Shown piece after piece: positions 33,314 to 60,445 of a stretch of 64,000 nucleotides of DNA. The DNA comes from Phyllobates terribilis (lineage: Eukaryota), in contig NW_027362768.1 of assembly GCF_046119375.1 (NCBI RefSeq), forward strand, positions 327,856,001 through 327,920,000, read 5' to 3'. Position numbers and translations under genes: made by a program. How positions within the stretch are numbered: position 1 is the first letter of the stretch; each line of letters begins with the position of its first letter. The notes beneath the pieces are model-generated. The model was given only the letters and a program-made list of their open reading frames with translations, did not search any database and was not told the DNA's origin.

Positions 33314-33471
33314 CTGTCGTAGGCACAGTTCGTGCTGCTTTTTACTGTCGTATCCACATTGTCCTCAATCAGCCAAATAAACTCTTGATTGGTCCTCAGG
33401 CGAATGTTCTTCCAATACTTCTTGGGGACATAACTACAGTCAGCGTTAAAGTCACCCATAAAGATAAAGTT
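33314..33471 (-). CDS. DNASE1L3: DNASE1L3 exon 6
   Basis: tatag|AAC..AG|gtaat, 158 nt; NFIFMGDFNADCSYVPKKYWKNIRLRT..STNCAYDR. Confidence 0.95.
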
Positions 33472-34392: not shown

Positions 34393-34660
34393 CAGTTAAG
34401 TCCATATATATTTGGACAGAGACAACATTTTTCTAATTTTGGTTCTAGACATTACCACAATGAATTTTAAACAAAACAATTCAGATGCAGTTGAAGTTCA
34501 GACTTTCAGCTTTCATTTGAGGGTATCCATATTAAAATTGGATGAAGGGTTTAGGAGTTTCAGCTCTGAACTTCAATTGTTTTGTTTAAAATTCATTGTG
34601 GTAATGTCTAGAACCAAAATTAGAAAAATGTTGTCTCTGTCCAAATATATATGGACCTAA

Positions 34661-34663
<3 letters not shown>
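34393..34663. mobile_element. Palindromic Tc1/mariner-type MITE followed by (TA)n
   Basis: CAGTTAAGTCCATATATATTTGGACAGAGAC..GTCTCTGTCCAAATATATATGGACCTAACTG, TA flanks; (TA)n at 34664-34710. Confidence 0.8.
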
Positions 34664-34716
<53 letters not shown>

Positions 34717-35547
34717 CATTCTGAGAATGGAACATAGTGCACGGACTGGCCGGCGGCTCTCCCGACCAAGTGTGACCGCTGCATAGAAATATATGTAGCT
34801 GTCACACTCAGGTCAGGAGAGCTGCCGGCCAGTCCATGCACTGCGATCCGATCTCTGTCCGATTTATACGGCCGTCTGACTCTTCACTTAGAGAAATAAG
34901 AAGTAGATGACTAAGGGCTCTTTCACACATCATCAGTTTTTTGGTAGATGTGCCATCAATTATTTTTAGTGGTAGGTCACACAGACATTACAAGCAGTGT
35001 GCTTATCACATTCCCTTTTTAGAAAACTGATTGTCAGCAACATGCTCAGACTGGCCCACAGGGGAACAGGAGAGTCCTCCGGTAGGCCGCCCCTGTGAAG
35101 GAGTGCTGATGAGCAGTGCTATTACACTTTATTCACAATTTGCAGAGAAGGTATAATCTAATCATTCATTAAACAAGCTAGCCATACTAATATTACATAG
35201 AAGAGTAAATTTGTGTACTAGGTTCAGCTGAACAGTGGGCCACAAGAATCCATGTTATTGGTGGGCCTTTGCCAACCCAATCTGACACTGGTCTGCAAAG
35301 AAAAGAAGTGGAGTCATGTCCGACTTTGATCAGTCAAAGTACTCGTCGGTGCAAGCTAACGTCCCTGTGGAAGAAAATCGGAGAGCGCACGCATGCCATC
35401 CATGTGTTGCCAGTATTTTACAGTTTAATGGATAAGAGAAACTAAGATTTTTTCTTCACGCAAAAAAACACTACATGCAACAAGGATTGTAAAATTTGGC
35501 ACATGGACCAAAAAATGAGTCCAGCACACTGAAAAAAATACTAAATA

Positions 35548-37118
35548 CACTGCTCAAAAAATAAAGGGAACACTTAAACCACAGAATATAACTCCAAGTA
35601 AATCAAACTGCTGTGAAATCAAACTGTCCACTTAGGAAGCAACACTGATTGACAATCAATTTCACATGCTGTTGTGCAAATGGAATAGACAATAGATGGA
35701 AATTATTGGCAATTATCAAGACACCCTCAATAAAGGAGTGGTTCCGCTGGTGGGGACCACAGACCACATCTCAGTACCAATGCTTTCTGGCTGATGTCTT
35801 GGTCACTTTTGAATGTTGGTTGTGCTTTCACACTCGTGGTAGCATGACACGGACTCTACAACCCACAGAAGTTGCTCAGGTAGTGCAGCTCATCCAGGAT
35901 GGCACATCAATGCGAGCTGTGGCAAGAAGGTTTGCTGTGTCTGTCAGTGCAGTGTCCAGAGGCTGGAGGCACTACCAGGAGACAGGCCAGTACACCAGGA
36001 GACGTGGAGGGGGCCATAGGAGGGCAACAACCCAGCAGCAGGACTGCTACCTCCGCCTTTGTGCAAGGAGGAACAGGAGGAGCACTGCCAGAGCCCTGCA
36101 AAATTACCTCCAGCAGGCCACAAATGTGAATGTGTCTGCACAAACGGTTAGAAACTGACTCCATGAGGGTGGTATGAGGGCCCGACGTACACAGATGAGG
36201 TTTGTGCTCACAGCCCAACACCATGCAGGACGCTTGGCATTTTCCACAGAACACCAGGATTGGCAAAGTCACCACTGGTGCCCTGTGCTCTTCACAGATG
36301 AAAGCAGGTTCACACTGAGCACATGTGACAGAGTCTGGAGACGCCGTGGAGAGCGATCTGCTGCCTGCAACATCCTTCAGCATGACCGGTTTGGCAATGG
36401 GTCAGTAGTGGTCTGGGGTGGCATTTCTTTGGAGGGCCTCACAGCCCTCCATGTGCTTGCCAGAGGTAGCCTGACTGCCATTAGGTACCCAGATGAGATC
36501 CTCAGACCCCTTGTGAGACCATATGCTGGTGCGGTTGGCCCTGGGTTCCTCCTAATGCAGGACAATGCCAGACCTCATGTGGCTGGAGTGTGTCAGCAGT
36601 TCCTGCAAGATAAAGGCATTGAAGCTATGGACTGGCCCGCCCGTTCCCCAGACCTGAATCCGATTGAGCACATCTGGGACATCATGTCTCGCTCCATCCA
36701 CCAACATCACGTTGCACCACAGACTGTCCAGGAGTTGGCGGATGCTTTAGTCCAGGTCTGGGAGGAGATCCCACAGAAGACCATCCACAACCTCATCAGG
36801 AGCATGCCCAGGCGTTGTAGGGAAGTCATACAGGCACGTGGAGGCCACACACAATACTCAGCCTCATTTTGACTTGTTTTAAGGACATTACATCAAAGTT
36901 GGATCAGCCTGTAGTGTGTTTTTCCACTTTAATTTTGGGGGTGACTCCAAATCCAGGCCTCCATTGGTTAATAAATGTGATTTCCATTGATGATTTTTGT
37001 GTGATTTTGTTGTCAGCACATTCAACTTTGTACAGAACAAAGTATTCAATGAGAATATTTCATTCATTCAGATCTAGGATGTGTTATTTGAGTGTTCCCT
37101 AGATTTTTTTGAGCAGTG
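35548..37118 (+). mobile_element. Tc1-family DNA transposon (DD34E), full length, 1571 bp, in DNASE1L3 intron 5
   Basis: TIRs CACTGCTCAAAAAA..GGGAACACT, TA TSD; FTDESRF, MQDNARPH, SPDLNPIE with 34 residues between D and E. Confidence 0.95.
35844..36872 (+). pseudogene. Tc1 transposase with in-frame stop at 36156-36158
   Basis: HTH N-terminus ([20 protein letters not shown]..) and DDE domain share one frame, separated only by TGA. Confidence 0.9.
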
Positions 37119-40416: not shown

Positions 40417-41154
40417 ACATTTTATAGAGAAAAATCATTAGAAAGAAATTGTTAGGTCTGAGTAGGTGTGATTGACAGTCCTGTAGGGGTAAGACTGACG
40501 GAGCTATAGGAACATGATTCACATATCTGTATCAGTACTGCACAAGAAGAACCTGAAGCAAGATTTAACATTTTTTAACAAAATATTCAGTGTACAGCAT
40601 GTGGATGCCTCTGAGTCTTAACTGGATTTTCAGCACATATTTAGAGCTAAGGATTTTATGCATGTATGTATGTATGTATTGCTTTTACACTGCCAATTCT
40701 GTAGCTACAAGGAAACGCTGAGCTCTATTTTTGCACATCTAATGTCTCTAAAAGCAATATGTATGCTATATATGGGATTGGGTTAGGGTTAGGGCTAGGT
40801 TAGAGTTAGGGCTAGATTAGAGTTAGGTTATGTCTAGGTTAGGTTAGGGCTAGGTTAGGTTATGGCTAGGTTAGGTTAGGTTATGGCTAGGTTAGGTTAG
40901 GGCTAGGTTAGGGCTAGGGCTAGGTTAGGTTAGGGCTAGATTAGGGTTAGGGCTAGGTTAGGGCTAAGTTAGGGTTAATGCTAGGTTAGGGTTAGGGCTA
41001 AGTTATGGCTAGGTTAGAGCTAGGTTAGGGCTAGGTTAGGTTACGGATAGGTTAAGTTAAGTTATGGCTAGGTTAGGTTAGGTTATGGCTAGGTTAGGGT
41101 TAGGGCTAGGTTAGGGCTAAGTTAGGGTTAGAGCTAGGTTAGGGTTAGGGCTAA

Positions 41155-42376
41155 TGTAGCACCCCGAGGACTCGGCTGCTACAGGGGTATTGCACCTCAA
41201 ACCAGAGGTGTGGTATTCCACTCCCGGGTAAGGATGGAGTGTGGGACTGGGCTCAGATAGCTGCATGCACTACACTCACCCCATTTCCGGGGGACAGAAC
41301 AACGGTACTCCCACCAAATAGTTGTGCAGGTACGACAGCGTCTGTCCCTGGGTGGAGTGGGGAGGGGGGAGGAACATCCCAGTAGTGTAGGGGCAGATAG
41401 GGGAGGGGCTCTGGGCATAGAGGTAGGAGCCCATTGGGTGCTAGTCACCTGGGCTCACACATAGAGGGAGTATATATGGTGGGCACCATCTAGAGACAGG
41501 GTGAGTTCTGAGGGAGAGTTCAGCCAGGAGGGCTGACGGGGAGCTGTGGCTCCGTCTGGGCCCAGCTCCAGAGCCAGGCCTGAAGCAGAGAGAGGAAGAA
41601 AAGGGAACACAAGGAAAGGCCCAGAGACGCAAGCAGAGGGAACCCTGAGATCCCACGAGTGAACCAAAACGGGTGAAGGATTGGCAGAAAAGGGTACCGG
41701 AGCCCAAACTGGCAGAGGCAAAATATCCTTAGCCAGGAACCGGAGGTCGTGGTCAAGCTTTGGCACGACCCTCACCACATCCACCAGGAAGGCATACCAC
41801 GAATAGGGTCAGGAAAGCCAGGAAAGGTTTTGCCACCAAGAGGCCCGAGGGAGCCGGACAAAGGTGGGTCCCTGGTGGGGACGGCCAGTAGGAAGAAAGA
41901 GAGAGGGGAGCTCAGGACCACGCTCTGGAACTGCCCGGGAGTTGACCGAGTCCCGCACCTGGTGGACGCAGCACGGCCCGGGTGGTCACCCTTGGCCGAA
42001 GTGACCGGAGCAACACCTGTGAGTAAAAACCCTGAAACTGCATCACACGTCTCTGAGCTTCCTTGCCGCACCATCACTACCACCATCATTTACGTCTGCT
42101 GCCCTGAGGCCATACCCCTCCCGTTGGGGGTTATACCATCTACGCTGCACAACCATATCACCGGCCTCAGCGGACTGTCCTGCAGCGGCAGCTCCATAGC
42201 TGCATTCAACGGGTGGCGTAGTCGTCCAACATCTACCGTTCAAAACACTGCCGTCCAGCTTGACTCCCTGGGCACGGACCGGGTCACCGCCACGAGACTA
42301 CTACTCCCATCGGATCCGGCTCCGGGTAAGCCCCCTTGCGCGCGATGCCGCGCGACGAAGGCCCAGGGGCGCGTCA
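41155..42376 (+). repeat. 5' LTR of E1
   Basis: TGTAGCACCCC..GGGGCGCGTCA; TATATAT at 41471; AGTAAA at 42022. Confidence 0.93.
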
Positions 42377-42380
42377 GCTT

Positions 42381-42398
42381 TGGCGTAGTCGGCAGGAT
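42381..42398 (+). other. Primer binding site of E1, complementary to tRNA-Ser 3' end
   Basis: TGGCGTAGTCGGCAGGAT, 4 nt after the LTR; reverse complement of tRNA-Ser 3' end ATCCTGCCGACTACGCCA. Confidence 0.9.
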
Positions 42399-42632
42399 TT
42401 CGTGCCCGCAACTACCGGGTACTGCGTGCCTGAAGAAAAGTTTATATGTACCGTCAGAAGAAGTCTCCCGCCAATTCCAGAGGGTCCCCGCCATCGGACG
42501 CCATCTCGGGTCGTTTCCCGCCGTTTGCCCGCCATCTGCAGCCTTTTCCCGCCATCCACGGAGTTTCCCGCCATTAGGAGACGATTCCCGCCATCTGAGA
42601 CGATTTCCCGCCCTGGCAGAGCGGACGCCATT

Positions 42633-44240
42633 ATGGGCGTGCCAGAGGGTGGCAAGAGACCACCTCCCATCGTGGGCCTGGTCCCAGAAGAGCGCCAAAA
42701 GCGGAGACCGCCCCCACCAGCAGAGACTGCAATGATAGAGATGTCCATCAGAGCGAGGGGTCTGCCCCTGGAACTGACAATCACCAAGTGGCCCCGGGAC
42801 CACCCTCAGTATGGGCGGATCAAGAACAAAAGAGAGAAGATGGGTGGGGCCTGGAGGAGTCTGGAAAGATCGCACCCGGAGATGGAGGGAGAGTCAGGCA
42901 GCACCGACCCTCTGGTCAGGAGCCTGTTGCAGGCCGCCACCCCAGAAGGCCTGGTGGAGATCCTGGCACAGCTCCCCAAAGATCGGGAGCATGCACAGAC
43001 CGCACTGGAGGGCTTGGCTCGGAAGATGGCCCGAGTGCAGCAAGAAGTGCTGGCCGAGTGGAGCAGAGAAATGGCCCTGCAGGCTGGAACCCGCCAGCAA
43101 AGGACGCCACCCGGGACGAGGAGCCTGTCTGCCTCTGAGGATGGTGCAGGAGGGACGAAGGCCGGAGACGACGCCGTGGAAGGAGCTGAAGAGATGGAAG
43201 CAGGTAAAGGGGACGTCACCACCTCAGGCCTAGTAGCCGTGAGCCTGCCCCAGCTCCCCGTCGCAGAGCCCAAAATCCCCCTTACCGTGCCCGATGCTGC
43301 ACCGCCACCGCTCCAAACTAGGCCTCAAGCGGCAGGAGCCGCGGCCACGCCCCCTGTGACGTCACGCGCCTCAACCCTGAGCGCGGCCAAGCAGGAAACG
43401 CCACCGGCCTGGTTGCAAGGCCGAGTACCCCCGGGCGCCGCCGTTTCCACAGTGCCCTTCACCTTCAGAGTGCCACCGGCCTGGTCGCAAGGCCTGGTGA
43501 ATCCGGGCGCCGATGCCCCCACCGCGCCCTCGACCTCCACAGTGCTGCCCCTGGGTGAAGATCTGTTTGCGCAGCATACTTGCCCGGATGGGCAGTCCTT
43601 TGTGTGGCCACCGGAGTACGTCAATCCCCGACTCCGGAAGGAATGGCCCCTGTGTGAGCCCCTGACCCCGGCTCCGGCGCCCGCCAAGATCACCCCACTC
43701 CCGTTGGAGGAGGCTCAGTTCGCATGGGACCCCACCGGTGAAAACCTCATGGGGTTCACCCAAGAGACCCGGGCGGCCGCAGCCCAGCGTGTGGAGTGCT
43801 GCCGACAACAACTAGAGGTCTTCAACAAAGAACGGCAAGAGAGGCGGGTCCGCGAGGAGCGGCTGCAGGTACAGAGCGCGGAGCAGAAACGCCGGACCCG
43901 GCGATACCCCCGTGCAGCCCACGGTCCCCGCGCCACCGGGACCGTAATCAAGTTCCAACTGGAGCACGGTTGGGGCTTTATCCGGGATCACAGAACCCCC
44001 GGCGATGTCTTTGTCACCCGCAGGGATGTCGAGTCTCACCTGCCGGAGGGACACCGAGGACGTGACCTTTACCTGGGTGATGAGGTCACCTTCACCCGGC
44101 ATCAGTGTGCCAAAGGACCGTACGCCCTTCACGTGTACCGATTGATGGAGGAAGAGCTGCGGTATGAGGAGGAACAAGAGGACCCGGACGTGTTTGAAGA
44201 TTACCCTCCGGAAGGAAAAGGAGGGCATAGTTATCACTGA
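42633..44240 (+). CDS. E1 ORF, 535 aa: helical/coiled-coil N-terminus, Pro/Ala-rich linker, C-terminal cold-shock domain (43929-44144)
   Basis: uninterrupted frame; start inferred from DAIM homology with E2; CSD motifs G-TVIKF, GWGFI (RNP1-like), DVFV (RNP2-like), L..GDEV.F, KG..A. Confidence 0.85.
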   Translation: MGVPEGGKRPPPIVGLVPEERQKRRPPPPAETAMIEMSIRARGLPLELTITKWPRDHPQYGRIKNKREKMGGAWRSLERSHPEMEGESGSTDPLVRSLLQAATPEGLVEILAQLPKDREHAQTALEGLARKMARVQQEVLAEWSREMALQAGTRQQRTPPGTRSLSASEDGAGGTKAGDDAVEGAEEMEAGKGDVTTSGLVAVSLPQLPVAEPKIPLTVPDAAPPPLQTRPQAAGAAATPPVTSRASTLSAAKQETPPAWLQGRVPPGAAVSTVPFTFRVPPAWSQGLVNPGADAPTAPSTSTVLPLGEDLFAQHTCPDGQSFVWPPEYVNPRLRKEWPLCEPLTPAPAPAKITPLPLEEAQFAWDPTGENLMGFTQETRAAAAQRVECCRQQLEVFNKERQERRVREERLQVQSAEQKRRTRRYPRAAHGPRATGTVIKFQLEHGWGFIRDHRTPGDVFVTRRDVESHLPEGHRGRDLYLGDEVTFTRHQCAKGPYALHVYRLMEEELRYEEEQEDPDVFEDYPPEGKGGHSYH

Positions 44241-44734
44241 ACGGTAAAGTTACCCGTCGGGGTACAAGAACTGTTGCCAATTTAAGTGGTCCCCGTTGGG
44301 ACTAGTGTGAATTGTTTCCCGTGTGTCCCTATCCCTAACCAGGCTGAGGACTGTGAGCAGCCATTCCTAATCCCCACTGGCCGAGGACTGAGAGCGGCCA
44401 TATCCTGTAAATAGTTGCGCTTCCTAAGGCGCCCCCTACCGGTTTTATAAGGAACTGTTTTTCTACTAGTGACTGTTGCACTTTACCTGGTCACAAGTTG
44501 CACCGCGGCCAGAAGATCAAGGGCGTTTTATATGAAAAAGTTTTATATCAAAAGTTTATGCTGCTAAAATTATAATATGAAAAGTTACCTGTAAAGATGA
44601 AGGAGAAAAGTACCTCCCATAAAGGGATGAGTTCTTAGTTAATGTTTTATATGTGAGTGTACACTTTAAAATTTTGTATGTTTTGTTTTGCTCTTTTCCA
44701 GCCCGAGGACGTGCTGTGGTTTACCAGGGGGGAA

Positions 44735-45956
44735 TGTAGCACCCCGAGGACTCGGCTGCTACAGGGGTATTGCACCTCAAACCAGAGGTGTGGTATTCCA
44801 CTCCCGGGTAAGGATGGAGTGTGGGACTGGGCTCAGATAGCTGCATGCACTACACTCACCCCATTTCCGGGGGACAGAACAACGGTACTCCCACCAAATA
44901 GTTGTGCAGGTACGACAGCGTCTGTCCCTGGCTGGAGTGGGGAGGGGGGAGGAACATCCCAGTAGTGTAGGGGCAGATAGGGGAGGGGCTCTGGGCATAG
45001 AGGTAGGAGCCCATTGGGTGCTAGTCATCTGGTCTCACACATAGAGGGAGTATATATGGTGGGCACCATCTAGAGACAGGGTGAGTTCTGAGGGAGAGTT
45101 CAGCCAGGAGGGCTGACGGGGAGCTGTGGCTCCGTCTGGGCCCAGCTCCAGAGCCAGGCCTGAAGCAGAGAGAGGAAGAAAAGGGAACACAAGGAAAGGC
45201 CCAGAGACGCAAGCAGAGGGAACCCTGAGATCCCACGAGTGAACCAAAACGGGTGAAGGGTTGGCAGAAAAGGGTACCGGAGCCCAAACTGGCAGAGGCA
45301 AAATATCCTTAGCCAGGAACCGGAGGTCGTGGTCAAGCTTTGGCACGACCCTCACCACATCCACCAGGAAGGCATACCACGAATAGGGTCAGGAAAGCCA
45401 GGAAAGGTTTTGCCACCAAGAGGCCCGAGGGAGCCGGACAAAGGTGGGTCCCTGGTGGGGACGGCCAGTAGGAAGAAAGAGAGAGGGGAGCTCAGGACCA
45501 CGCTCTGGAACTGCCCGGGAGTTGACCGAGTCCCGCACCTGGTGGACGCAGCACGGCCCGGGTGGTCACCCTTGGCCGAAGTGACCGGAGCAACACCTGT
45601 GAGTAAAAACCCTGAAACTGCATCACACGTCTCTGAGCTTCCTTGCCGCACCATCACTACCACCATCATTTAGGTCTGCTGCCCTGAGGCCATACCCCTC
45701 CCGTTGGGGGTTATACCATCTACGCTGCACAACCATATCACCGGCCTCAGCGGACTGTCCTGCAGCGGCAGCTCCATAGCTGCATTCAACGGGTGGCGTA
45801 GTCGTCCAACATCTACCGTTCAAAACACTGCCGTCCAGCTTGACTCCCTGGGCACGGACCGGGTCACCGCCACGAGACTACTACTCCCATCGGATCCGGC
45901 TCCGGGTAAGCCCCCGTGCGCGCGATGCCGCGCGACGAAGGCCCAGGGGCGCGTCA
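44735..45956 (+). repeat. 3' LTR of E1
   Basis: direct repeat of 41155-42376 at a constant 3580-bp offset; preceded by PPT AGGGGGGAA. Confidence 0.93.
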
Positions 45957-47402
45957 CTAAGTTAGGGTTAGAGCTAGGTTAGGGTTAGGGCTAAGTTACA
46001 GCTAGGTTAGGTTAGGGTTTCGGGCTAGGTTAGGGTTAGGGCTAAGTTAGGGCTAGGTTAGGGTTAGGGCTAAGTTATGGCTAGGTTAGGTTAGGGTTTC
46101 GGGCTAGGTTAGGGTTAGTTTAGGGTTAGGGCTAGGTTAGGGTAAAGTTAGGGCTAGGGTAAGATCTATACCTTATCATTTATACTGCATAGCAATTCTG
46201 CTCACAACAGAGATATTTTAGAGTTAGAGTTTGGATGTGCAGGTGTATTTTAGGGTACTCTCATATTGGCATTCAGTGTTACGCTTTTCTTTTCCATTAT
46301 CGGAACAGAAAACTGGAACTTCCGCAAAAAAAACAAAAAATGCATCCATGCTATTAAAAGGATCCCAGGGGTTGATGTCTTTTGCAGCAAACACAAACAG
46401 CAGTGAAACAGGATCCTGTGTGTTAGCGCTTCCTCACACATCTTCCTCTGTGACCACTTGCAGTTAGATAACAATACACACATACAATTCGGAAAACCAC
46501 AGACAGAATGAGTCACTATGGTGTGCAAAAATAAATTTTAGTTTACTGGAAAAAATGATTAACATTATATATATTTGGTAGCAGGTACATGACTTAGCAG
46601 AGGTTCAGACATTGCGTTTGCATCAGTTACATGATACAACTGTTTTGGACCTTCCATTTCAGATGAGTAAATTGTTTTGCAGGACCCTGGTCCAACAGCC
46701 AGGTTGGAATTCCCTGGTCGCCGGACGGGAGTCTGTGAACCAACTCCTACCAGCCATTAAACACCAGCGCCCCTCTTTGATTAGTATGCACCTCGCCACG
46801 TCATCGTTGACCTCAAACCTTGGACAGCTAATCGGAAGAGGGGCTGGGAGACTGGGAGTTAGGAGGCGGTACACAGGTCTCTTGAATGGCCGCTTGACCA
46901 GGGACCTGCGAATCCATTCGCTCATCTCTACTCTCAAAACTTCAAGGATTTCTTTATTCTGCCTACTGTTCTTGTCCGTAAAATAGATGAGAATAGTGCA
47001 CACTGCGTACTTGGCCACACAGACCTGAGGTCCGCGTAGAAAACTGGTCAAGTGCAGACCATTGGTCCTTGTGCTGTCAATGTGCAGTCTGTTTTGCACA
47101 TGGATTGAACCAAGCCTAAATGTTTTTGCGATGGGAAGTGGCCAACAAATCATCATCAATCATCTTAAAGGGGTACTATCATCCTAGATATTTATGGAAT
47201 ATTCACAAGATATGATCTAATTGTTAGGAAGTTCCATATTTACTGGCTCAAAACAGGCCTTTTCCAACGGCAAAATCTGCAATTCAAGCCCCCTTTGAAT
47301 CAGCAAACAGATATTATGCATCATCATACATTTACATCATATGCTATGGATATGGTATAAATGCTCTAGATGGAAAACATAAGTGGGGTCAGCTCGTTTT
47401 AA

Positions 47403-47793
47403 AGAGGACCCTTTACTGGATTTTTTAATTTAACCTGATTATCTCCTCCAATTTCTGTTGCTGCACTGATTCTGGAACAGTTTTTTCTTGTTTTTTTCTG
47501 AGTCCTTCCTTTCTGAAGCTATGTGGCCCCGGTAATAATAATGCAACTTTTCCCTTCAGCCAACTGGGCGTATATACAACAGAGCTTCTTTGTGGGCGTT
47601 TGCTTCTTCTCCTCTATGACAGAAGTTCTGTGATATACGTCCAATTGGTTGATGGAAAATTTGCACCTTTATTACCAAAGGGTATAACTTTAGAAAGGAG
47701 GGGCACAGAAAAAAAACCTGTTCCAGAATGAGTAAAACAGTGGCAATTGGAGGAGGTACCCCATTTAAAAAAAAATCCAGTGAAAGGTCCACT
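47403..47793. mobile_element. T2/Kolobok-type MITE
   Basis: TTAA|AGAGGACCCTTTACTGGATTTTTT..AAAAAATCCAGTGAAAGGTCCACT|TTAA. Confidence 0.75.
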
Positions 47794-48359
47794 TTAAGGT
47801 TTGGTGGGGTCCTTTAAAGGTCTTTTCTGAAAAAATCTCTTCAATTTAGGCCACAGCCCCAGCCAAAATTAGAAATATAAGACTATTTGACTATATGTTG
47901 ACAATCCCTCCTCCAAGGGGATAATAAATGAGAGAACCAATACCCTACTCTGCACTGATGAGGGACAAGAGTCAGCGGTCTATGGATGGATGTCTATTCC
48001 TTTTGAAGAAGACTATGGTTTGGTGAAATATCCCAAGTTAGATGGTGGGAATACTCGTTCAAGGATCGGACATTGACCTATAGTGTAACTTCCACTACTA
48101 AGTGGCATTAGATGGATCACTTTTATTCTACTTGGTAAGAAAAGTCAAGTTTCAATAAAGTATTTTGGTTAAAATAAAAGGAATTCACTGGTGATCTCTT
48201 GGTTTCCCCTATGTCAGTACTGACAATGTTTTTAAGCAGCTGTCCAGCGCCACAACTTGCACCACTCCATATTGAGCTTCTTTCGGGTTTTGCTGGAGTG
48301 TGAATAACCCAAAATCTGTGGACTCAACACCTCCACAAATAAAGTTGACGACACCTTAC

Positions 48360-48448
48360 CTGTTTAGTTTTGCCATTAGTGAGTTAATCACTTTGTCCGT
48401 GCTGTCTTTGATCTCCATCAATAGCATTATGTCACAGCGAGATACAAC
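48360..48448 (-). CDS. DNASE1L3: DNASE1L3 exon 2
   Basis: attag|GTT..AG|gtaag, 89 nt; VVSRCDIMLLMEIKDSTDKVINSLMAKLN. Confidence 0.93.
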
Positions 48449-48632
48449 CTAATGATAAGAAACATCAGAATAAGCATTAATTAATCTTGCAATTTTCATA
48501 CTGGCCACTGAGGATATTTTAGATACCTACTTCCTGTCCTTTTAAGAAGAGTTTTCAGCAGGCACATTATCATCAGAGGCAGGAATACAAGGACACACCT
48601 TTTTAGCTGGCGGATAATGGATAGGTGGCAAC

Positions 48633-48943
48633 TAGTGATGAGCGAGTGTGCTCGTTTAACCCTTTCACCGAGCACGCTCAGGTGTTTACTGAGTATCTTC
48701 GGCGTGCTCGTATTTTATGTTCGAGTCCCTGCATCTGCGTTATTTACGGCTGTTAGACAGCCTCAACACATGCAGGGATTGCTTATTTGTTAGGGAACCT
48801 CACATGAGTTCAGGCTGTCTTACCAGCCATAAATCATTCAGACGCTGGGACTCGAACATAATATACGAGCACGCGCAAGATACTCGTTAAGCACCCGGGC
48901 ATGCTTGGTGAAAGAGTTAAACGAACATGCTTGCTCATCACTA
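48633..48943. mobile_element. hAT-type palindromic MITE, same family
   Basis: TAGTGATGAGCG..GCTCATCACTA; TSD GTGGCAAC/GTGGCAAA (7 of 8). Confidence 0.8.
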
Positions 48944-49931
48944 GTGGCAAACTTCTTTTTGAAGTCACACACCCCTCTATGCCCATTACCCCCAATCCTC
49001 AGCTCAAGGAATAAAGATTCCTCCCAAAATAACAGTTTTCCAAAAGGCAAATTTGTCAGGGCTAGGGAAATTTGCTGACTTTTCTGGAAGTCTAGGAGGT
49101 CTCCCCTTATTCTGGGAGCCTCATACATTTCAGGAGAGCTGGCAAGTATGATATGTGAGCTATCTATATAAGCAACAAAGGAGCCACTGTGTCCCGTCAG
49201 ACATTAGGGCACTGGTGCACCGTTGCTCTCCCTATAGTCGCGCCCCTGCATCTCTGTAGAGAAAAGAGATTTAGTGGAAAATCCGGATTATCCAGATTGC
49301 TGACAATATTCCAAACCTGAGCAGATGAAAGTACAAATACACAGACTAGGATTCCGACTAACAGAACGTGGCAAGAGACTTACGCTCTATCTCCAATATG
49401 CTGTCTAAACTTCACCACCTCGATAAATCACTCACTTCTCATTTATATACATTACATTTGCGAGTGTCTTTTCTTCCTTAAAAAGCTCACAATTAACCCG
49501 TGTTACCACCAATGCCCATCCCCGGCCATGATACATCCTCCCTTACTGATACTACACTGCACAAGTACATGACTATGCAAAGTAGGAATATGGGAAAAAT
49601 AAATTACGGCATTTATAATTGCCTAAAAATTATACAATTAGAAAATATTATTCTTTGCCCAGATTTGAGCAAAAATATCTGCGGCACAAGCAGAAAGTCT
49701 GCAAAGGGCAAATATATTAGAGGTCATAACATTGCCCATCATTAAGGCAGGTGCAAACGAGTGTATCTTCAGTCCGAATGCGATCCGACAAAACATCGGA
49801 TCGCGCTCAGACCAATGTTATGCTATGGGGCCGTGCACAAGTCCGTTTGGATGCAGAAACGTTATATGTGAACATGCCTTAATAATGCAAGGATATATTC
49901 CGACTATGTAAATTTCATGATGGTTCGTTAT

Positions 49932-50240
49932 TAGTGATGAGCGAGTATGTTTTGTTAACCCTGTCGCCGAGTATACTCGGGCGAGCACCGAGTATTTACA
50001 GCTGCTTGGTGATATGCTTGAATCACTCCCGTGTGCATGATTTGCGACTGTTTGACAGCTTTAATACATGTGAGGAATGTCTGCTTCTTACACATTCCTC
50101 ACATCTATTAAAGCTGTCAAACAGTCGCAAATCATGCACACAGGAGTGATTCAAACATATCACTGAGCAGTTGTAAATACTCTGTGCTTGTCCGAGCATA
50201 CTCGGCGAAAGGGTTAAAAGAACATACTCGCTCATCACTA
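49932..50240. mobile_element. hAT-type palindromic MITE, same family, in DNASE1L3 intron 1
   Basis: TAGTGATGAGCG..CGCTCATCACTA; TSD TTCGTTAT/TTCATTAT (7 of 8). Confidence 0.8.
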
Positions 50241-50323
50241 TTCATTATACAATAGCCCTACTCTGCAATACCCATAGTACGGTGATACAATATCGAAACA
50301 GTGCCAAGATCAGGAGGACTCAC

Positions 50324-50455
50324 CTTCACAATGACATTCATCACTTCTGGCTTGGCACTTTTTGCCTCTCCGAAAGACTGGATGTTAAAAGAACAAATTC
50401 GAAAGGCGGCAGCATCGATGAAGCAGAGGGTGAACAGCAGAGCAACAAACATCAT
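50324..50455 (-). CDS. DNASE1L3: DNASE1L3 exon 1 (signal peptide and mature N-terminus)
   Basis: MMFVALLFTLCFIDAAAFRICSFNIQSFGEAKSAKPEVMNVIVK|gtgagt; 132 nt. Confidence 0.93.
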
Positions 50456-50525
50456 GGTTCAGGATCAGACAAGTTGTGTATACAGCTCCCCGTCCCTACT
50501 AAACTGTGGTGTCAACAGGAACTAC

Positions 50526-50550
50526 AAGTTCCTCAACTTTCACTCATTTT
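50526..50550 (-). promoter_or_regulatory. Adjacent IRF/PRDM1-like and PU.1/ETS-like motifs upstream of DNASE1L3
   Basis: minus strand AAAATGAGTGAAAGT-T-GAGGAACTT, 70-95 nt upstream of the ATG; motif match only. Confidence 0.4.
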
Positions 50551-51582
50551 AAAAGTAACTTGTTTTGTTTGGCAGTTCCCCCTGTCCCCATCAGTGAGCT
50601 AAGATCTCATATATGTCCGGAGAGATTTATTAACTGATGAGTCTGGAATATATCTCCTAAATATGGAGAAAGTTATTAAAATTCATTGGCTTCAGTGTAA
50701 TGCAGGAAATGGACATTGAGCCGTGTGTCTCCATGAAGGAAAGAGCAATGTGTGGAAAATGGGGGAGATTTAATAAGAAAAATTAGCCGCAATTCATTAA
50801 CAACTTGCACAAAAAAATGTAGTATGTTTATTACGTGTTGTAAAAGTTTTTTAATAGCGTCTCACTAGAGGCTAAAAAGTGTAAAAATAAAGTAGTAAGG
50901 ATAAGTCATATTTGCCAAAGCTCCGGGAACATCTGTGAGGATCCCGGAGTAAGGAAAGACCTCCTGGACACTTGAAAGAGTCAGCAAATTAACCTGCCCC
51001 CTGTCTGAAAACTTCCAGAAATAAGTTATAGAGGGAGGTTTCCTCATTCATGGAGGTGGTGAACATGGTGGAACACAGCAGAACCACCATCAAATACTTA
51101 TTTTCCCCACTGTATATGTCCCCCACCCTGATTATATATATAATGCCTGCCGCTGTTCTTTAATGTATAGAAAAAAAATAAAACATTATACTCACCAGGG
51201 GCTAACATAGAAGTCATGGGGCCCCATAGCAGAAGTATAATGCACTCCCAATAGTCCTCCATATAGTATAATGCACCCCCATAGTCCTCCATGTAGTATA
51301 ATGTACAGTCCATAGTCATATATGTAGTATAATGCACTCCTCATAGTCATATATGTAATATAATGCACAGCCCATAGTCATCCATGTAGTATAATGCACA
51401 GCTCATAGTCCTCCATATAATATATTGGACCTCCGATAGTCATACATGTAATATAATGCACATCCCATAGTCCTCCATATAATATAATGCACAGCCCATA
51501 GTCCTCCATGTAGTATAATGCACAGCCCATAGTCATATATGTAATATAATGCACAGCCCATAGTCATCCATGTAGTATAATG

Positions 51583-54500
51583 TGTGACGCCCTCCCTGAG
51601 CAGATGGGGGATACTCGGAGCCGGGCCTTGCAGATGTTGTGGGGATGAAGTCGTGGCCTTGACCCGTTCCGTGCCCAGGGCTGTCACAGTAAAAATGGGC
51701 TTTTTGGATGAGTGGTTAATGTTCGACTACGCCACCTGTGGTTTCTGGTGAAGGCCACCAGCGCTGCGACAGTCCTCTGAGGCTCATGTTCTGGCAGCTT
51801 GGTTGGTACTACTCCCCACAGGCGGAGTAGGCCTCAGGGCAGTGTTTGATGAACTGTGTGGAGGTATGGTGGGTGCAGTGCCGCGCAGGAACAAACAAGC
51901 GGAGGCGGTAAATGAAGTCATCCAGGCCTTTACTCACTTTAGATGCACTTTCAGCCGCAAAGCTTCTCTCTGCTACAAACGGCATACTGCGGCCACCAGG
52001 AAGGGGGCTCAGCACTTCCCAGGTAGATCAGGAGCACCTGTCAAGACCCCATTGGTGTGTTCCTCTCCTTCTTATCTCCTCCCGCTTGTGTTCCTCCCTG
52101 GGATCCAGTAAGCCGCTGGGCTGTTCCAACAGTGACGTGAAGTACACAGTCAGATATCGGGGGCCAGTCACCCCTCTTGCGGCAGGAGTCCCTCTGGCAA
52201 GGCCAGAGTGAAGAATACAGGTGGCGACTCCGCTCCGTCCGTATCCCCCTGGGATCCTTTCGCCTGTGGAGCCTATCTCCTCTGCTCCCCTCCAAGGCCT
52301 TCTTAGAACGGGACCCTGACCGGGCAGAGACTCTTGTTAACTCTGACCCGCTCCTCATCTCAAGGCCAGAGAACGAGGACCGTGAATCTTCAGCCAGCTA
52401 CAGATTCTTGCTGGACCCTGACAGAGGACCACAATCAAATGACCCTGAACTTAAGATGGCCATGTATTATATATGATTCTATAAGTGCTTCCTGTAAGTG
52501 TTTCCTCCATCCTTACCCACTACTTGGTTCCCCCTGTCCTTGGTTCCCCCCATCTCCTCTATCCCGGACCGGGGCAGCACCCTGGTGCTATCTGGCCCCC
52601 TACAGGATGGGAGAGGTGTAGTGTTGAGTGTGAAGTGGGGTCCTGTGTGATGCTCCATCCTTACCTGGAAGAGGAGATACCACACCTCATCTGAGGTGCA
52701 GTACCCCTGTGGCGACTGAACCCTTCAGGGGCGCCACATTCCTCCCTGGTGAAACACAGCACGTCTGCGGGCTGCAATAGAGCAAAAGATTGGTACATCT
52801 CAGACATTCAAAAGAAAATTTTTAAATGCTTTGTAAACAATAAACAATCTTCCCTTTATGGGAGGCTCAAATACTTTAACGTTACAGGATATATGGTATA
52901 AATATATGAAACATTAAAGAGACATTATGCATGTAGAAAAATACTGTAGAAAAGTGCTAGTTCAGCAGCATGAGGGACCTGTCTAAAACCCTCAACGTAG
53001 GCCCTGGGGTGGCGGCAGGGCATGGAGATCCTGAGTTGGACCTCCAGTAGAGCCACGACCAGACAGGTTTTGCTTCTGAGGTCAGAGGTAGTGGTTTTGC
53101 ATAAAACCAATAGGGGGCACCTAAATAGGTGCAAACTATGTACAAAGTTAGTCTGTCGACTGCTCAGAGTCCGCAGGGACAAATGTTTGTAGATAACCAT
53201 AAAGAAAAACAAATGATAGTTCAACAAAAGGGAGGTTCAGCCTCCGGGGCTGCATCAGCAATGGTATCCCCAACGGGGAAATGACTCATGCTTGCCGATG
53301 GAGCCTGACCGGTCCTCTGTGGCTAGGTGCGTGGGGGCATCTTCTTTAAACACCCTGTAGACATCCAGGGCATACCACCCACGCTCCCCGTAGTGGCGGG
53401 TGTAGGACACTAGATCACCCGGGTAGAGGTTCCGGCCAGGGTGGCCCTGCTCTAGCCGCGGCTCGACGTCCCGCCGTTTGACGAAGACGTCCCGGTTGAA
53501 CTGTGGGCTACGGATGAAGCCCCATCCTGCCTCCTGGTGGAAGCGCACGATAAGGCCTTCTTCCCGTGGGCTTGGACGGGTGGCCTCCTCCTGACGGGCC
53601 TGTGATTTAGCAGCCTTGACGCGCACCTCCAGGCGCTCACAGTGGATCCTCCTCTCTCGCCGCTCCTTCTTGAGCTGAGGAGCTCCTTACGGCAGAACTC
53701 CTCCCGCCTCCGCGCTTCGGACTGGGTCTCCCGGGGGAAGCCCATCAGGTCACCCCACTGGTTGTCCCAGCCAAACTCTTCTGCCAACGGGCAGGCGACC
53801 GGAGGTGCGGGCAGCGGCAATAGCAGGGGTCGTTGCGGGCCCTCTATTGGTGCGGACCGGTCCCGGTTGGGGCAGGTGTACACCCAGGAGAGTGCAGGGT
53901 TCTCTGGATCGGGAGTCGAGAGGAATAGCAGGCTTCTGGGAGCGGCGGTGGCTTGGGCCTCGGCCTCTGGAGCCAGGAGTTGCTCCCACACGATGGCGCC
54001 CGGGGACAGGGGTGACGGCAGGAGTTCTAGGAGGGCTTCGGTGCGTCCCGCGCCCGGGATAGGGGTTTCGACCTTACCCGCTCTTGGGCTGCACAGGGCC
54101 TCCTGGGTTTCCTCCGCCTGGGCTGAGGCCTCAGTAGTCAGGCGCGACGAGCTCCGGCAGCAGGCCTCAATCTTCCGCAGCACCTCTTCCCTCCATTCAG
54201 CAGCGGCCAGTCGTTGGGCCTCTTCGACCCTCCGGGTCAGATCCTGCGCTTCACCGCGGAGGAACTCGGCCTCCTCCGTGGTCAGGTACATTCCCTCCAT
54301 AGTGAGGGAGGTGGCAGCTGGTGGGCCAACGACGGAGGGCATCTCCTTGGCTGCGTCCATCTCTGCTGTAGGGTGCGGTCTCTCTGGACTTGTTGCGGCC
54401 GCACCCTGTCTCGATCTTCTTCCCCTCCTCCTTTTGGGGCGGCTCCAGGATGGCTGGCTGACTGGCACTCCTTGGGACGTCCCATCCGGACACTACTATG

Positions 54501-55894
54501 CGGACGGTCTCTGCTGGAGGGGGTGGTTGGCACTTTTGGCGCCATTGGGGAGCCAGGCCCACGATGGGAGGTCTTAGGTTGCTGTTGTTTTTGCACATAA
54601 TGGCGTCCGTTCTTCTTGGGCGGGCGCCACATTGAGTGTGTAAAAACAGTCTTTTGCGAAAGGCGCACAGTACCCGGCGGCAATGGGGATTAACTTCTTC
54701 TGTTGCTGCGGGCACGCATCCTGCCGACTACGCCAGTTCTGTGACGCCCTCCCTGAGCAGATGGGGGATACTCGGAGCCGGGCCTTGCAGATGTTGTGGG
54801 GATGCAGTCGTGGCCTTGACCCGTTCCGTGCCCAGGGCTGTCACAGTAAAAATGGGCTTTTTGGATGAGTGGTTAATGTTCGATTACGCCACCTGTGGTT
54901 TCTGGTGAAGGCCACCAGCGCTGCAACAGTCCTCTGAGGCTCATGTTCTGGCAGCTTGGTTGATACTACTCCCCACAGGCGGAGTAGGCCTCAGGGCAGT
55001 GTTTGTTGAACTGTGTGGAGGTATGGTGGGTGCAGTGCCGCGCAGGAACAAACAAGCGGAGGCGGTAAATTAAGTCATCCAGGTCTTTACTCACTTTAGA
55101 TGCACTTTCAGCCGCAAAGCTTCTCTCTGCTACACACGGCGTACTGCGGCCACCAGGAAGGGGGCTCAGCACTTCCCAGGTAGATCAGGAGCACCTGTCA
55201 AGACCCCGTTGGTGTGTTCCTCTCCTTCTTATCTCCTCCCGCTTGTGTTCCTCCCTGGGATCCACTAAGCCGCTGGGCTGTTCCAACAGTGACGTGAAGT
55301 ACACAGTCAGATATCGGGGGCCGGTCACCCCTATTGCGGCAGGAATCCCTCTGACTAGGCCAGAGTGAAGAATACAGGTGGCGACTCCGCTCCGTCCGTA
55401 TCCCCCTGGGATCCTTTCGCTTGTGGAGCCTATCTCCTCTGCTCCCCTCCAAGGCCTTCTTAGAACGGGACCCTGACCGGGCAGAGACACTTGTTAACTC
55501 TGACCCGCTCCTCGTCTCAAGGCCAGAGAACGAGGACCGTGAATCTTCAGCCAGCTACAGACTCTTGCTGGACCCTGACAGAGGACCACAATCAAAGGAC
55601 CCTGAACTTAAGATGGCCATATATTATATATGATTCTATAAGTGCTTCTTGTAAGTGTTTCCTCCACCCTCACCCACTACTTGCTTTCCCCTGTCCTTGG
55701 TTCCTCCCATCTCCTCTATCCCGGACCGGGGCAGCACCCTGGTGCTATCTGGCCCCCTACAGGACGGGAGAGGTGTAGTGTTGAGTGTGAAGTGGGGTCC
55801 TGTGTGATGCTCCATCCTTACCTGGAAGAGGAGATACCACACCTCATCTGAGGGGCAGTACCCCTGTGGCGACTGAACCCTCAGGGGCACCACA
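51583..55894 (-). mobile_element. Second, older full-length element of the same family; element E2
   Basis: LTRs 51583-52738 and 54740-55894 (about 30 differences, ~2.8%), TSD AATG, PBS 54718-54735 (tRNA-Ser), PPT ACCAGGGAGGAA next to 52738. Confidence 0.92.
53255..54598 (-). pseudogene. E2 CSD-protein ORF with two inferred frameshifts (about 54470 and 53676); CSD at 53351-53566
   Basis: three track ORFs align in order with E1: DAIM..PPIVGL..PPPPAET; ..AEW..WD..LMGF..ET; GWGFIR..DVFVKRRDVE..YALDVYR. Confidence 0.85.
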
Positions 55895-58800
55895 AATGCA
55901 CAGCCCATAGTCCTCCATATAATATAATGTACCCCCATAGTCCTCCATGTAGTATAATGCACAGCCCATAGTCATATATGTAATATAATGCACAGCCCAT
56001 AGTCCTCCATGTAGTATAATGCACAGCCCATAGTCCTCCATATTATATAATGCACAGCCCATAGTCCTCCATATAATATAATCAACCTTCCATAGTCATC
56101 CATGTCGTATAATGCACAGCTCATAGTCATACATATAGTATAATGCACAGCCAATAGTCATGCATGTAATATAATGCACTCCCCATAGTCATATATGTAA
56201 TATAATGCACAGCCCATAGGTACATGTAGTATAATGCACAGCCCATAGTCATACATGTAGTATAATGCACAGCCCATAGTCATCCATGTAGTATAATGTA
56301 CAGCCAATAGTCATACATGTAATATAATGCACTCCTCATAGTCATATATGTAATATAATGCACAGCCCATAGGTACATGTAGTATAATGCACAGCTCATA
56401 GTCCTCCATATAGTATAATGCACAGCCCATAACCATCCATGTAGTATAATGCACAGCCCATAGTTATACATGTAGTATAATGCACAGCCCATAGTCATCC
56501 ATGTATTATAATGCATAGCCCATAGTCATCCATGTATCCATGTAGTATAGTGCACAGCCCATAGTTATACATGTAGTATAGTGCACAGCCCATAGTTATA
56601 CATGTAGTATAGTGCACAGCCCATAGTTATACATGTAGTATAATGCACAGCCCATAGTTATACATGTAGTATAATGCACAGCCCATAGTTATACATGTAG
56701 TATAGTGCACAGCCCATCAGCCCATAGTCCTCCATGTAGTATAATGCTAAGCCCATAATCATCCATGTAGTATAATGCACAGCCCATAGTTATCCATGTA
56801 GTATAATGCACAGCCCATAGTCATCCATGTAGTATAATGCACAGCACATAGGTACATGTAGTATAATGCACAGCTCATAGTCCTCCATATAGTATAATGC
56901 ACAGCCCATAGTCATCCATGTAGTATAATGCACAGCCCATAGTTATACACGTAGTATAATGCACAGCCCATAGTCCTCCATCTAGTATAATGCTCAGCCC
57001 ATAATCATATATGTAGTATATTGCACAGCCAATAGTCATACATGTAATATAATGCACTCCCCATAGTCATATATGTAATATAATGCACAGCCCATAGGTA
57101 CATGTAGTATAATGCACAGCTCATAGTCCTCCATATAGTATAATGCACAGCCCATAGTCATCCATGTAGTATAATGCACAGCCCATAGTTATACACGTAG
57201 TATAATGCACGCCCATAGTCATCCATCTAGTATAATGCTCAGCCCATAATCATACATGTAGCATAATGCACAGCCCATAGCTATACATGTAGTATAATGC
57301 ATAGCCCATAGTCATCCATGTAGTATAATGCACAGCCCATAGTCATCCATGTAGCATAATGCACAGCCCATAGTCATCCATGTAGTATAATGCACAGCCT
57401 ATAGTCATACATGTAGTATAATGCTCAGCCTATAGTCATCCATGTAGTATAATGCTCAGCCCATAATCATACATGTAGCATAATGCACAGCCCATAGCTA
57501 TACATGTAGTATAATGCATAGCCCATAGTCATCCATGTAGTATAATGCACAGCCCATAGTCATCCATGTAGCATAATGCACAGCCCATAGTCATCCATGT
57601 AGTATAATGCACAGCCTATAGTCATACATGTAGCATAATGCACAGCCCATAGCTATACATGTAGTATAATGCATAGCCCATAGTCATCCATGTAGTATAA
57701 TGCACAGCCCATAGTCATCCATGTAGCATAATGCACAGCCCATAGTCATCCATGTAGTATAATGCACAGCCTATAGTCATACATGTAGTATAATGCTCAG
57801 CCTATAGTCATCCATGTAGTATAATGCACAGCCCATAGTCATCCATGTAGTATAATGCACAGCCCATAGTTATACATGTAGTATAATGCTCAGCCTATAG
57901 TCATCCATGTAGTATAATGCACAGCCCATAGTCATCCATGTAGTATAATGCACAGCCCATAGTTATACATGTAGTATAATGCACAGCACATAGTCATCCA
58001 TGTAGTATAATGCACAGCCCATAGTCATCCATGTAGTATAATACACAGCCCATAGTTATACATGTAGTATAGTGCACAGCCCGTAGTCATCCATGTAGTA
58101 TAATGCACAGCCCATAGTCCTCCATGTAGTATAATGCTCAGCCCATAATCATACACGTAGTATAATGCACAGCCCATAGCTATACATGTAGTATAATGCA
58201 CAGCCCATAGTCATCCATGTAGTATAATGCACAGCCCATAGTCATCCATGTAGTATAATGCACAGCCCATAGTCATCCATGTAGTATAATGCACAGCACA
58301 CAGTCATCCATGTAGTATAATGCATAGCCCATAGTCCTCTATGTAGTATAATGCATAGCCCATAGTCCTCCATGCAGTATAATGCACAACCCATAGTCAT
58401 CCATTTAGTATAATGCACAGCCCAAAATTATCCATGTAGTATAATGCACAGCCCATAGTCATCCATGTAGTATAATGCACAGCCCATAGTCATCCATGTA
58501 GTATAATGCACAGCCTATAGTCATCCATGTAGTATAATGCATAGCCCATAGTCATCCATGTAGTATAATGCACAGCCCATAGTCATCCATGTAGTATAAT
58601 GCATAGCCCATAGTCATCCATGTAGAATAATGCACAGCCCATAGTTCTCCATATAGTATAATGCACAGCCCATAGTCATCCATGTAGTATAATGCACATC
58701 CCATAGTCATCCATGTAGTATAATGCTCCATATAGTATAATGCACAGCCCATAGTCCTCCATGTAATATAATGCACAGCCCATAGTCATCCATGTAGTAT

Positions 58801-59425
58801 AATGCACAGCCCATAGTCATCCATGTAGTATAATGCACAGCCCATAGTTATCCATTTAGTATAATGCATAGCCCATAGTCATCCATGTAGTATAATGCAC
58901 AGCCCATAGTCATCCATGTAGTATAAAGCTCCATGTAGTATAATGCACAGCCCATAGTCCTCCATGTAATATAATGCACAGCCCATAGTCATCCATGTAG
59001 CATAATGCACAGCCCATAGTCCTCCATGTAGTATAATGCACAGCCCATAGTCCTCCATGTAGTATAATGCACAGCCAATAGTCATCCATGTAGCATAATG
59101 CACAGCCCATAGTCATCCATGTAGCATAATGCACGTCTCATAGTCCTCCATGTAGTAGAATGCACAGCCCATAGTCATCCATGTAGTATAATGCACAGCC
59201 CATAGTCCTCCATGTAGTATAATGCACAGCCCATAGTCATCCATGTAGTATAATGCATAGCCCATAGTCATCCATGTAGTATAATGCACAGCACATAGTC
59301 ATCCATGTAGTATAATGCATAGCCCATAGTCATCCATGTAGTATAATGCACAGCCCATGGGTACATGTAGTATAATGCACAGCCCATAGTCCTCCATGTA
59401 GTATAATGCATAGCCCATAGTCATC

Positions 59426-60445
59426 TGTGGCACCCCAGGGGTCTGGGTTCCACAGTAATAGCAATATTATGTCTGAGAGCAGGTGGGAGGTCTCTTGGTC
59501 AGGAATCCTATGCATGCCACACCTCCTGCCCAGTCCTGGGAGGGGAAGGACTTCCCCTATATAAAACTGGGGCTGAGGCAGGGTTAGAGAGAAGAGAAGA
59601 AGAGGAGTCCCAGACAGAGACATAGTCTGGTCTGGAGAGGAGCAGCTATAGGAAAGAGAGATCAGGAGCTCTGGGGAAGTCGCGCTAAAAGGAATCAGGG
59701 GCTGGCAGCTGTAGAGCTCGCCCTGATTGAAGAATTATCACCGGACCCGGAGTCCGAGGCTGTGGGGACTAATCCTTACCCAGCAGCAGAAACCGACCGG
59801 CAGGGGATTTCAGGTCCTCTGGCCAAGAAACCCGAAGGTACGGTCACACGCGTGGGACCAGCACCGCCGTCGTGGAGCGGAAGCCACTAGAAGGCCCCGA
59901 GTCACCGGCCATACGGGTAAGCACCACACGGTACACTCAGGGACGTGGGCTACTTTTACCCGCCTCTAGCAAGGTAGCCAGAAGAGTACAATTAGTTGGG
60001 GAGGCCTACAACTCCGCCTGGCCAGGGGAAATCCCATCTGCTCAAAGACTGACCAGGCCCCGATCGCTAGCCAGTACTCCGGGAGTGTCTATCTTTATCA
60101 CCAGTAAAGACCCTGAACTACACCGCATCGTCTCTGAGTGGTTCCTGCTACCCCCATCATCCACGTCGGCTGCCCTGAGGCCATACCCCTCCCGTTGGGG
60201 GTTATACCATCTACGCTGCACAATCGTACCACCGGCCTCAGCGGTCTGCCCTGCAGCGGCAGCTCCATAGCTGCATTCAACGGGTGGCGTAGTCGTCCAA
60301 CATCTACTGCTAATACTCAGCCACACAGTTTGACTCCCTGGGCACGGACCGGGTCACCGCCACGAGACTACTACCCCCAACAGGCCCGGCTCCGGGTAGT
60401 CCCCGCGTGCGCAACGCTACACCAAGCAGGCCCAGGGGCGCGTCA
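59426..60445 (+). mobile_element. Solo LTR of the same family in the 31-bp satellite
   Basis: TGTGGCACCCC..GGGGCGCGTCA, TSD CATC; last ~280 bp highly similar to the E1 LTR 3' end; TATATAAA and AGTAAA. Confidence 0.9.

Follow-up and report, generated by a model that had tools for sequence, protein, structure and literature searches.

Mammalian MaLR elements are high-copy long terminal repeat (LTR) elements with one open reading frame (ORF) and no pol that depend on a helper; their ORF is regarded as gag-like and their helper as ERVL. In plants, TR-GAG and other ORF-bearing non-autonomous LTR elements combine LTRs, a primer-binding site (PBS), a polypurine tract (PPT) and a single ORF, encode no enzymes and are mobilised in trans (PMC13570524), and in LARDs foreign DNA between the LTRs replaces the coding region and is likewise moved in trans (PMC6431247). 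Bdelloid LTR retrotransposons have acquired non-env ORFs, termed ORF3, across diverse lineages (PMC5408684). Here we describe E2, an LTR element in a 64,000-nt stretch of the Phyllobates terribilis genome (contig NW_027362768.1, positions 327,856,001 to 327,920,000; hereafter, the window), together with E1, a member of a sister subfamily in the same window. A non-autonomous element should have no need of a protein of its own; these elements nonetheless encode a cold-shock domain (CSD), a host-type RNA-binding domain that is under clear purifying selection in at least three families. Searches were run over the assembly that holds the window (10.6 Gb).

E2 belongs to an abundant family of non-autonomous LTR retrotransposons, of which it is an old and decayed copy, with the following features:

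51583-55894, minus strand: E2, a non-autonomous LTR element lying within a 31-bp satellite
51579-51582 and 55895-55898: 4-bp target duplication, AATG
54740-55894, minus strand: 5′ LTR (TG..CA)
54718-54735, minus strand: PBS, complementary to the 3′ end of tRNA-Ser(AGA/TGA)
53255-54598, minus strand: CSD ORF (ATG at 54598, stop at 53255), with frame-changing indels near 54488 and 53677
53351-53566, minus strand: CSD, 72 codons, open
52739-52747, minus strand: PPT
51583-52738, minus strand: 3′ LTR

The two LTRs differ at 32 of 1156 columns (2.8%), and comparison with three natural E2-family copies whose ORF is open shows both frame-breaking indels each time. The ORF bounds, the LTR divergence of about 2.8% and the two frameshifts given in a first-pass annotation of the window are thus borne out. 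E1 is younger and its ORF is intact:

41155-45956, plus strand: E1, young element of the sister subfamily, in telomere-like repeat
41155-42376 and 44735-45956, plus strand: LTRs, 0.5% apart (6 of 1222 columns)
42381-42398, plus strand: PBS; the target duplication is CTAA
42633-44240, plus strand: open ORF of 535 amino acids, with a predicted helix at about residues 118-154, then a Pro/Ala-rich linker and a long charged helix at residues 380-424
43929-44144, plus strand: CSD, residues 433-504, followed by an acidic tail

Paired TG..CA LTRs with 4-bp target duplications, found in E1, E2 and many further copies, give these elements the structure of LTR retrotransposons, and E1 and E2 both have a PPT and an identical 18-nt primer site that matches the 3′ end of tRNA-Ser. 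Genes for tRNA-Ser were found in five of eight stretches fetched from 74 pattern matches; six further loci from the tRNA-Ser search were not called tRNA-Ser, the one read being another element's primer site. Neither E1 nor E2 has the gag, protease, reverse transcriptase, RNase H and integrase that an autonomous Ty3/Gypsy element carries between its LTRs: the distance between LTRs in their families is about 2.0-2.4 kb, and the only Pfam family in their frames is the CSD. A second, primer-site-like word lies inside the U5 part of the LTR, about 150-170 nt before the primer site, and is kept in all aligned subfamilies (E1, E2 and the putative helper described below). Some elements (L393, L401, L402 and L405) have a primer site with a much longer match to the tRNA-Ser 3′ end, reaching about 35 nt at most, as though additional tRNA sequence had been copied in.

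A tblastn search of E2 with E1 as the query returns three segments in frames -2, -3 and -2, covering the motifs DAIM..PPIVGL..PPPPAET (E 1e-10), WD..LMGF..ET (4e-12) and the charged helix, or coil, plus the CSD (3e-28), in line with the earlier statement that the two ORFs are homologous along their length. On realignment the CSDs match without gaps at 39 of 72 positions, as had been reported, and DNA alignment of the two elements is limited to short patches, in agreement with the first-pass annotation.

The first-pass annotation also took the CSD ORF for a feature of the whole family that purifying selection maintains from one subfamily to the next; comparisons of non-synonymous (dN) and synonymous (dS) change support such selection. 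These comparisons use modified NG86 counting with a fixed kappa of 2, in which pairs are not independent and column counts are not tree-based. First, over the 72 CSD codons E1 and E2 give a dS of 1.45, a dN of 0.43 and a ratio of 0.30 (95% bootstrap 0.10-0.57), with 25, 21 and 44 differences at the first, second and third codon positions.

Second, clustering of 132 CSDs at 86% DNA identity yields 14 clusters (the CSDs were picked gap-free, which makes this no test of gap-freeness). Across the 14 cluster representatives the ratio is 0.22 in the coding frame and 0.36 in the antisense shadow frame, compared with 1.57-2.25 in the four remaining frames examined.

Third, between-subfamily dN/dS differs by region, being 0.11-0.35 in the CSD, 0.15-0.51 in the coil that precedes it, 0.22-0.73 in the first helix, 0.44-1.13 in the linker and 0.75-0.96 at the N terminus, so that values near 1, which would have spoken for neutrality, are not what the CSD shows. 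These regional values also bear on the idea that an open frame or RNA structure alone is selected, for example through evasion of nonsense-mediated decay, and that the amino acids are irrelevant. Conservation of the N-terminal region at the DNA level would fit such selection, as would the large in-frame indels that the linker tolerates, whereas a CSD dS of 0.9-1.5 against a dN of 0.10-0.47, and a fold that is kept, do not. For the CSD and the coil the idea is largely refuted, for the first 80 codons it may hold, and overall we regard it as very improbable. In the N-terminal motifs it is the DNA that is conserved rather than the protein: the dN/dS of 0.75-0.96 in that region comes with a low dS, the third-position excess is weak (differences by codon position 0.19/0.18/0.25 versus 0.26/0.22/0.51 in the CSD) and the DNA word behind DAIM, which we take to resemble a YY1 site, also occurs in the gag-pol family described below, in its untranslated leader. 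Of the motifs listed earlier along the ORF, those at the N terminus are not evidence of selection on protein.

Fourth, within families, in samples picked by LTR and primer rather than by protein, variants shared by at least four copies have far lower dN/dS than private variants: 0.15 versus 0.67 in the E2 family (Fisher p 0.005; 36 copies used, after two were dropped for low identity and two had no located primer site), 0.02 versus 0.33 in E1 (p 0.002; 20 copies) and 0.18 versus 0.74 in a further family, F (28 copies, two tandem repeats dropped). This gap indicates that copies decay after insertion while the lineages that spread kept the protein; the CSD and the preceding helix are selected in spreading lineages, and decay after insertion is near-neutral. 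Shared indels that are not multiples of three number three among the E1 copies and two of six among the E2 copies.

The CSD is also retained in most members. An exact pattern of LTR end plus primer site has 36,437 matches (the reversed control has 0), and among the first 60 of these junctions, taken in position order along chromosome sequence C1, 32 elements have a CSD and 4 have the ORF without it, while 21 belong to the gag type and 3 to neither group. The CSD is thus kept in 32 of 36 ORF-type elements, bearing out its description as a family feature and leaving those that lack it a small minority; 26 of the 32 carriers are open from helix to CSD and 6 are broken. Retention is similar in 34 of 39 copies selected by E2 LTR/primer DNA and in all 20 E1-type copies read (20 of 39 matches, skipping tandem clusters and unplaced contigs). 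E2's own junction has 19 exact matches, and full-length LTR pairs are mostly 93-98% identical in its subfamily versus 98-100% in E1's, from which we conclude that the E2 subfamily is the older and smaller. Extrapolation from one chromosome end gives, roughly and for a single junction type, about 19,000 copies or about 90 Mb; the 33,000-37,000 CSD candidates returned per search at first look are not copy numbers. The four CSD-less copies of the 60-junction sample have four distinct breakpoints, none of them GT-AG and two with short microhomology, on which grounds we reject splicing as their origin.

Family F, found by a search with a divergent CSD, extends the pattern. It has LTRs of 1.03 kb, the E1/E2 primer site, an interior of about 2.6 kb and a CSD 31% identical to that of E1; there are 553 exact junctions, F-type ORF sequence is present in 30 of 30 copies read, and the primer region is all that it has in common with E1, E2 and the putative helper. 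Copies of family F (L271-L290, L303-L332) are young, and some stand in tandem arrays with common LTRs. A separate cluster of three tandem, divergent CSD ORFs lies at about 791.48-791.52 Mb of G000:C4 (L181:4227-5123 on the minus strand, L279 and L280); two are open over the CSD, all keep the His of the RNP2 motif and nest within the element clade, no LTR pair or primer site was found within the stretches read, and the cluster may represent domesticated or very old copies. Selection could act on the host, with a few domesticated or master loci making a useful CSD protein and the many LTR copies being their passive offspring, and this low-copy cluster, with its two open CSDs of three and its retained His, fits that account. 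On the other hand, at least 14 CSD clusters and family F show the same pattern, many with paired young LTRs, and variants that appeared while LTR-flanked copies were multiplying bear the mark of purifying selection; we consider host-level selection improbable.

Structure prediction for the protein is poor overall but confident in two parts. Across AlphaFold models of 18 natural copies the mean predicted local distance difference test score is 51, with the long helix and the CSD confident (blocks 66-93). The predicted CSD is a five-stranded oligonucleotide/oligosaccharide-binding (OB) barrel like those of CspA and YBX proteins, its structure matches being CspA (TM-score 0.88-0.89), YBX1/2 and Lin28, with root-mean-square deviations of 1.6-2.7 Å in the top five; the whole protein had no match above 0.76 in the ESM Atlas. 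Pfam CSD (PF00313) scores are 32.8 bits for E1, 26.9 for E2 and 27.8 for F against a cut-off of 27. The canonical motifs are RNP1, [YF]-G-F-I, and RNP2, which ends in His (PMC7825780). RNP1 reads W-G-F-I in E1 and E2 and Y-G-F-L in F, and the RNP2 His is replaced, so that the canonical motif pair is not present.

As to origin, a 13-sequence profile scores 50-52 bits against YBX1/2, at most 39 against bacterial Csp proteins and 20 against CSDE1, Lin28 not being listed. In a tree of 48 rows and 78 columns, all 25 element-type CSDs form one clade (support 98/98), separate from CSDE1, a decayed YBX-like copy, bacterial Csp and multi-CSD proteins. The elements are not themselves host Y-box genes, which have a near-invariant CSD, introns and low copy number: their CSD is about 30% identical, intronless and present in many LTR-flanked copies. 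Because they form one clade and score best against YBX1 and YBX2, the CSD was likely captured once, long ago, from a host Y-box gene and then retained. The first-pass annotation had set an ancestral family feature against a one-off gene capture; this alternative is a false one, as a single old capture that was kept fits both. Intronless CSDE1-like copies, partly duplicated and interrupted by sequence resembling long interspersed nuclear elements, at about 734.44 Mb of G000:C1 (L061-L066), are likely processed pseudogenes.

Word-indexed protein searches matched only P0001, which may stem from the assembly searched here and which we do not treat as a second species, and P0126, a frog gene model joining an element-type CSD to an astacin/CUB protease and probably a gene-prediction fusion. 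A search of the full protein library gave 145 matches, mostly multi-CSD proteins; the relatives among them are labelled Ranitomeya variabilis, R. imitator and Anomaloglossus baeobatrachus and, in the F-like branch, Bufo bufo. None of the 15 proteins looked up has a fish or reptile label, a weak negative as repeat ORFs are usually masked. Frog entries named 'Y-box-binding protein 2-A-like' or 'uncharacterized' may in part be element ORFs.

The missing enzymes could come from the gag-type elements of the junction sample. These are Ty3/Gypsy elements of about 7.9 kb (partner family L231-L241). Their gag is weakly PNMA-like and has a zinc knuckle at its end, and after it come protease, reverse transcriptase, RNase H and integrase, the gene set of an autonomous element. 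E1 is 77-79% identical to L231, L234 and L241 over U5, primer site and leader (73% to L233), shared cis sequences of the kind that trace a non-autonomous element to its helper, and this gag-pol family is likely the helper of E1; E2 is about 70% identical to it over about 200 nt of U5. CSD elements outnumber this likely helper in the 60-junction sample (32 versus 21). The CSD ORF has no homology to the helper Gag (hhalign probability 0.1%, no Gag Pfam match), and a Gag origin of the ORF is rejected on that score. PNMA-family loci were also considered as the helper, and none of 30 has a primer site or a match to E1/E2; the helper was found by the junction pattern. One young element (L237, at about 3.99 Mb of G000:C1, LTRs 99.6% identical) combines the leader of the helper with no more than the last part of the CSD ORF, and is of recombinant type. 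The window itself holds a remnant of the gag-pol family:

59426-60445, plus strand: solo LTR from the gag-pol (likely helper) family, with 94% identity to the LTR of L234 and a CATC target duplication, in the same 31-bp satellite as E2

The same elements speak to whether the signal of selection was inherited from an unseen autonomous ancestor that carried a CSD ORF beside gag-pol, with the short elements merely decaying. No helper was found for E2 or for F, and the 11 gag-type elements read at length (over 10 kb) are of one family, which leaves room for such an ancestor. Yet none of those 11 has a CSD, and low dN/dS is found within families that are mostly 2.0-2.6 kb inside, with no pol in sampled members. 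We judge this ancestry hardly probable.

Taken together, we think it reasonably probable that the E2 family consists of helper-dependent LTR elements with a selected CSD, likely from a single Y-box capture, whose protein likely binds its own RNA to aid copying. The element would be transcribed from its own LTR in the germ line, and helper proteins would package its RNA and reverse-transcribe it from the tRNA-Ser primer. The CSD protein would work chiefly in cis, chaperoning or stabilising the RNA in a Y-box-like coating of messenger ribonucleoprotein; alternatively, it might hand the element RNA to the helper's particle. LINE-1 ORF1p shows such a cis preference. Copies with a working CSD protein would out-copy those without, and since the ORF is selected in a helper-dependent element, we infer that the benefit falls to the encoding copy. 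Y-box proteins coat stored germ-line mRNA (PMC7825780), and poison-frog ova express Gypsy elements (PMC6278860).

The main rival reading draws on the same selection data: rather than chaperoning packaging, the CSD protein could be an anti-silencing or transcription-boosting accessory factor. It would then bind at the LTR, to DNA or RNA in single-stranded form, or keep the host's Y-box or PIWI-interacting RNA machinery from handling element RNA. Families with unrelated LTRs carry the CSD, the altered RNP2 suggests a changed specificity, and FRGY2 masks mRNAs in frog oocytes (PMC7825780). However, a diffusible suppressor would also aid broken copies and so weaken selection, whereas the dN/dS of shared variants (0.02-0.18) indicates strong selection, and none of the present results favours it directly; we regard this function as unlikely, though worth weighing.

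Several observations count against an RNA-binding accessory protein acting in cis. No run recorded as RNA contains the element. Runs that might be RNA, and others bearing the labels of two further organisms, have short contigs covering all 30 bins of E1 and 26-30 of the 30 bins of E2, but the kind of these runs is unrecorded and we do not use them as evidence. Three of the four CSD-less copies are young (LTR identity 99.1-99.8%; no LTR pair was found for the fourth), and hence one insertion may not need the CSD. The RNP2 His and the YBX Trp adjoining strand 1 are both replaced, so that binding may differ from or be weaker than that of a canonical CSD. The helper is traced for the E1 clade only, as E2 shares about 200 nt of U5 with it and F the primer site only. 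As for the selection estimates, the E1-E2 dS (1.4) is near saturation, the simple counting with fixed kappa 2 and non-independent pairs has no CpG model, and private E1 variants are also low (0.33, from just 15 changes). Finally, the tree has 78 columns and no intact YBX row, the donor resting on the profile score.

Nevertheless, selection on the CSD in at least three families, one of which has only the primer site in common with the others, suggests an accessory protein that acts in cis, and the elements may be among the contributors to very large genomes in frogs. Tentatively, and with less confidence than in the family-level reading, one may picture a long-lived lineage of retrotransposon parasites in frogs that captured a Y-box CSD before the poison-frog/toad split, lost gag and pol, and coats its own RNA in cis in the manner of masked maternal mRNA. 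Such a lineage would have switched between unrelated LTRs, become more numerous than its helper and contributed to the inflation of a 10-Gb genome.

Within the window, the neighbours of E1 and E2 are host filamin and SPMIP1 exons on the plus strand, and a transposase:

4212-21423, plus strand: filamin-repeat exons
26606-27109, plus strand: SPMIP1 exon
35649-36872: Tc1-type transposase (helix-turn-helix plus DDE_3), frame broken by a single stop

Telomere-like repeat flanks E1 (40770-41154 and 45957-46180), the 31-bp satellite (51180-59425) surrounds E2 and the solo LTR, and several further copies likewise lie within tandem repeats; this location could reflect targeting or survival bias. An Rfam scan of 41100-56000 gave only four sub-threshold matches to microRNA models, on inverted repeats outside E1 and E2.

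Among known systems, MaLR offers an analogy, from which the frog elements differ in having a CSD as their ORF and a Ty3/Gypsy-type helper. LINE-1 ORF1p is of another fold and element class, and we claim no homology; the analogy is limited to a helical region and a nucleic-acid-binding domain that serve the element's own RNA (PMC9410894). No report of a CSD in an LTR element was found among titles and the starts of abstracts (Repbase, Dfam and supplements lay outside this scope, and a library entry may exist), nor do the main texts of two poison-frog genome papers (PMC11152451, PMC6278860) mention such an element. YBX1, YBX2 and FRGY2 (PDB 6a6j, 6ktc, 7f3i; PMC7825780) are the best profile match and share the OB fold and a similar long loop between strands 3 and 4, but identity is about 30%, the Trp and RNP2 His are replaced in the element, and its CSD is C-terminal behind a long helix. 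The bdelloid ORF3s (GDSL esterase, DEDDy exonuclease) add to gag and pol (PMC5408684), whereas the frog CSD ORF is the sole ORF and the sampled gag-pol family has no CSD. Unlike the cargo of LARDs (PMC6431247), that of the frog elements is an ORF whose codons are under purifying selection in many subfamilies, and unlike TR-GAG, which keeps a Gag ORF (PMC13570524), the frog ORF has no Gag homology and ends in a CSD. The element is thus structurally like TR-GAG and LARDs with a captured accessory gene added, yet it has neither a Gag ORF nor pol.

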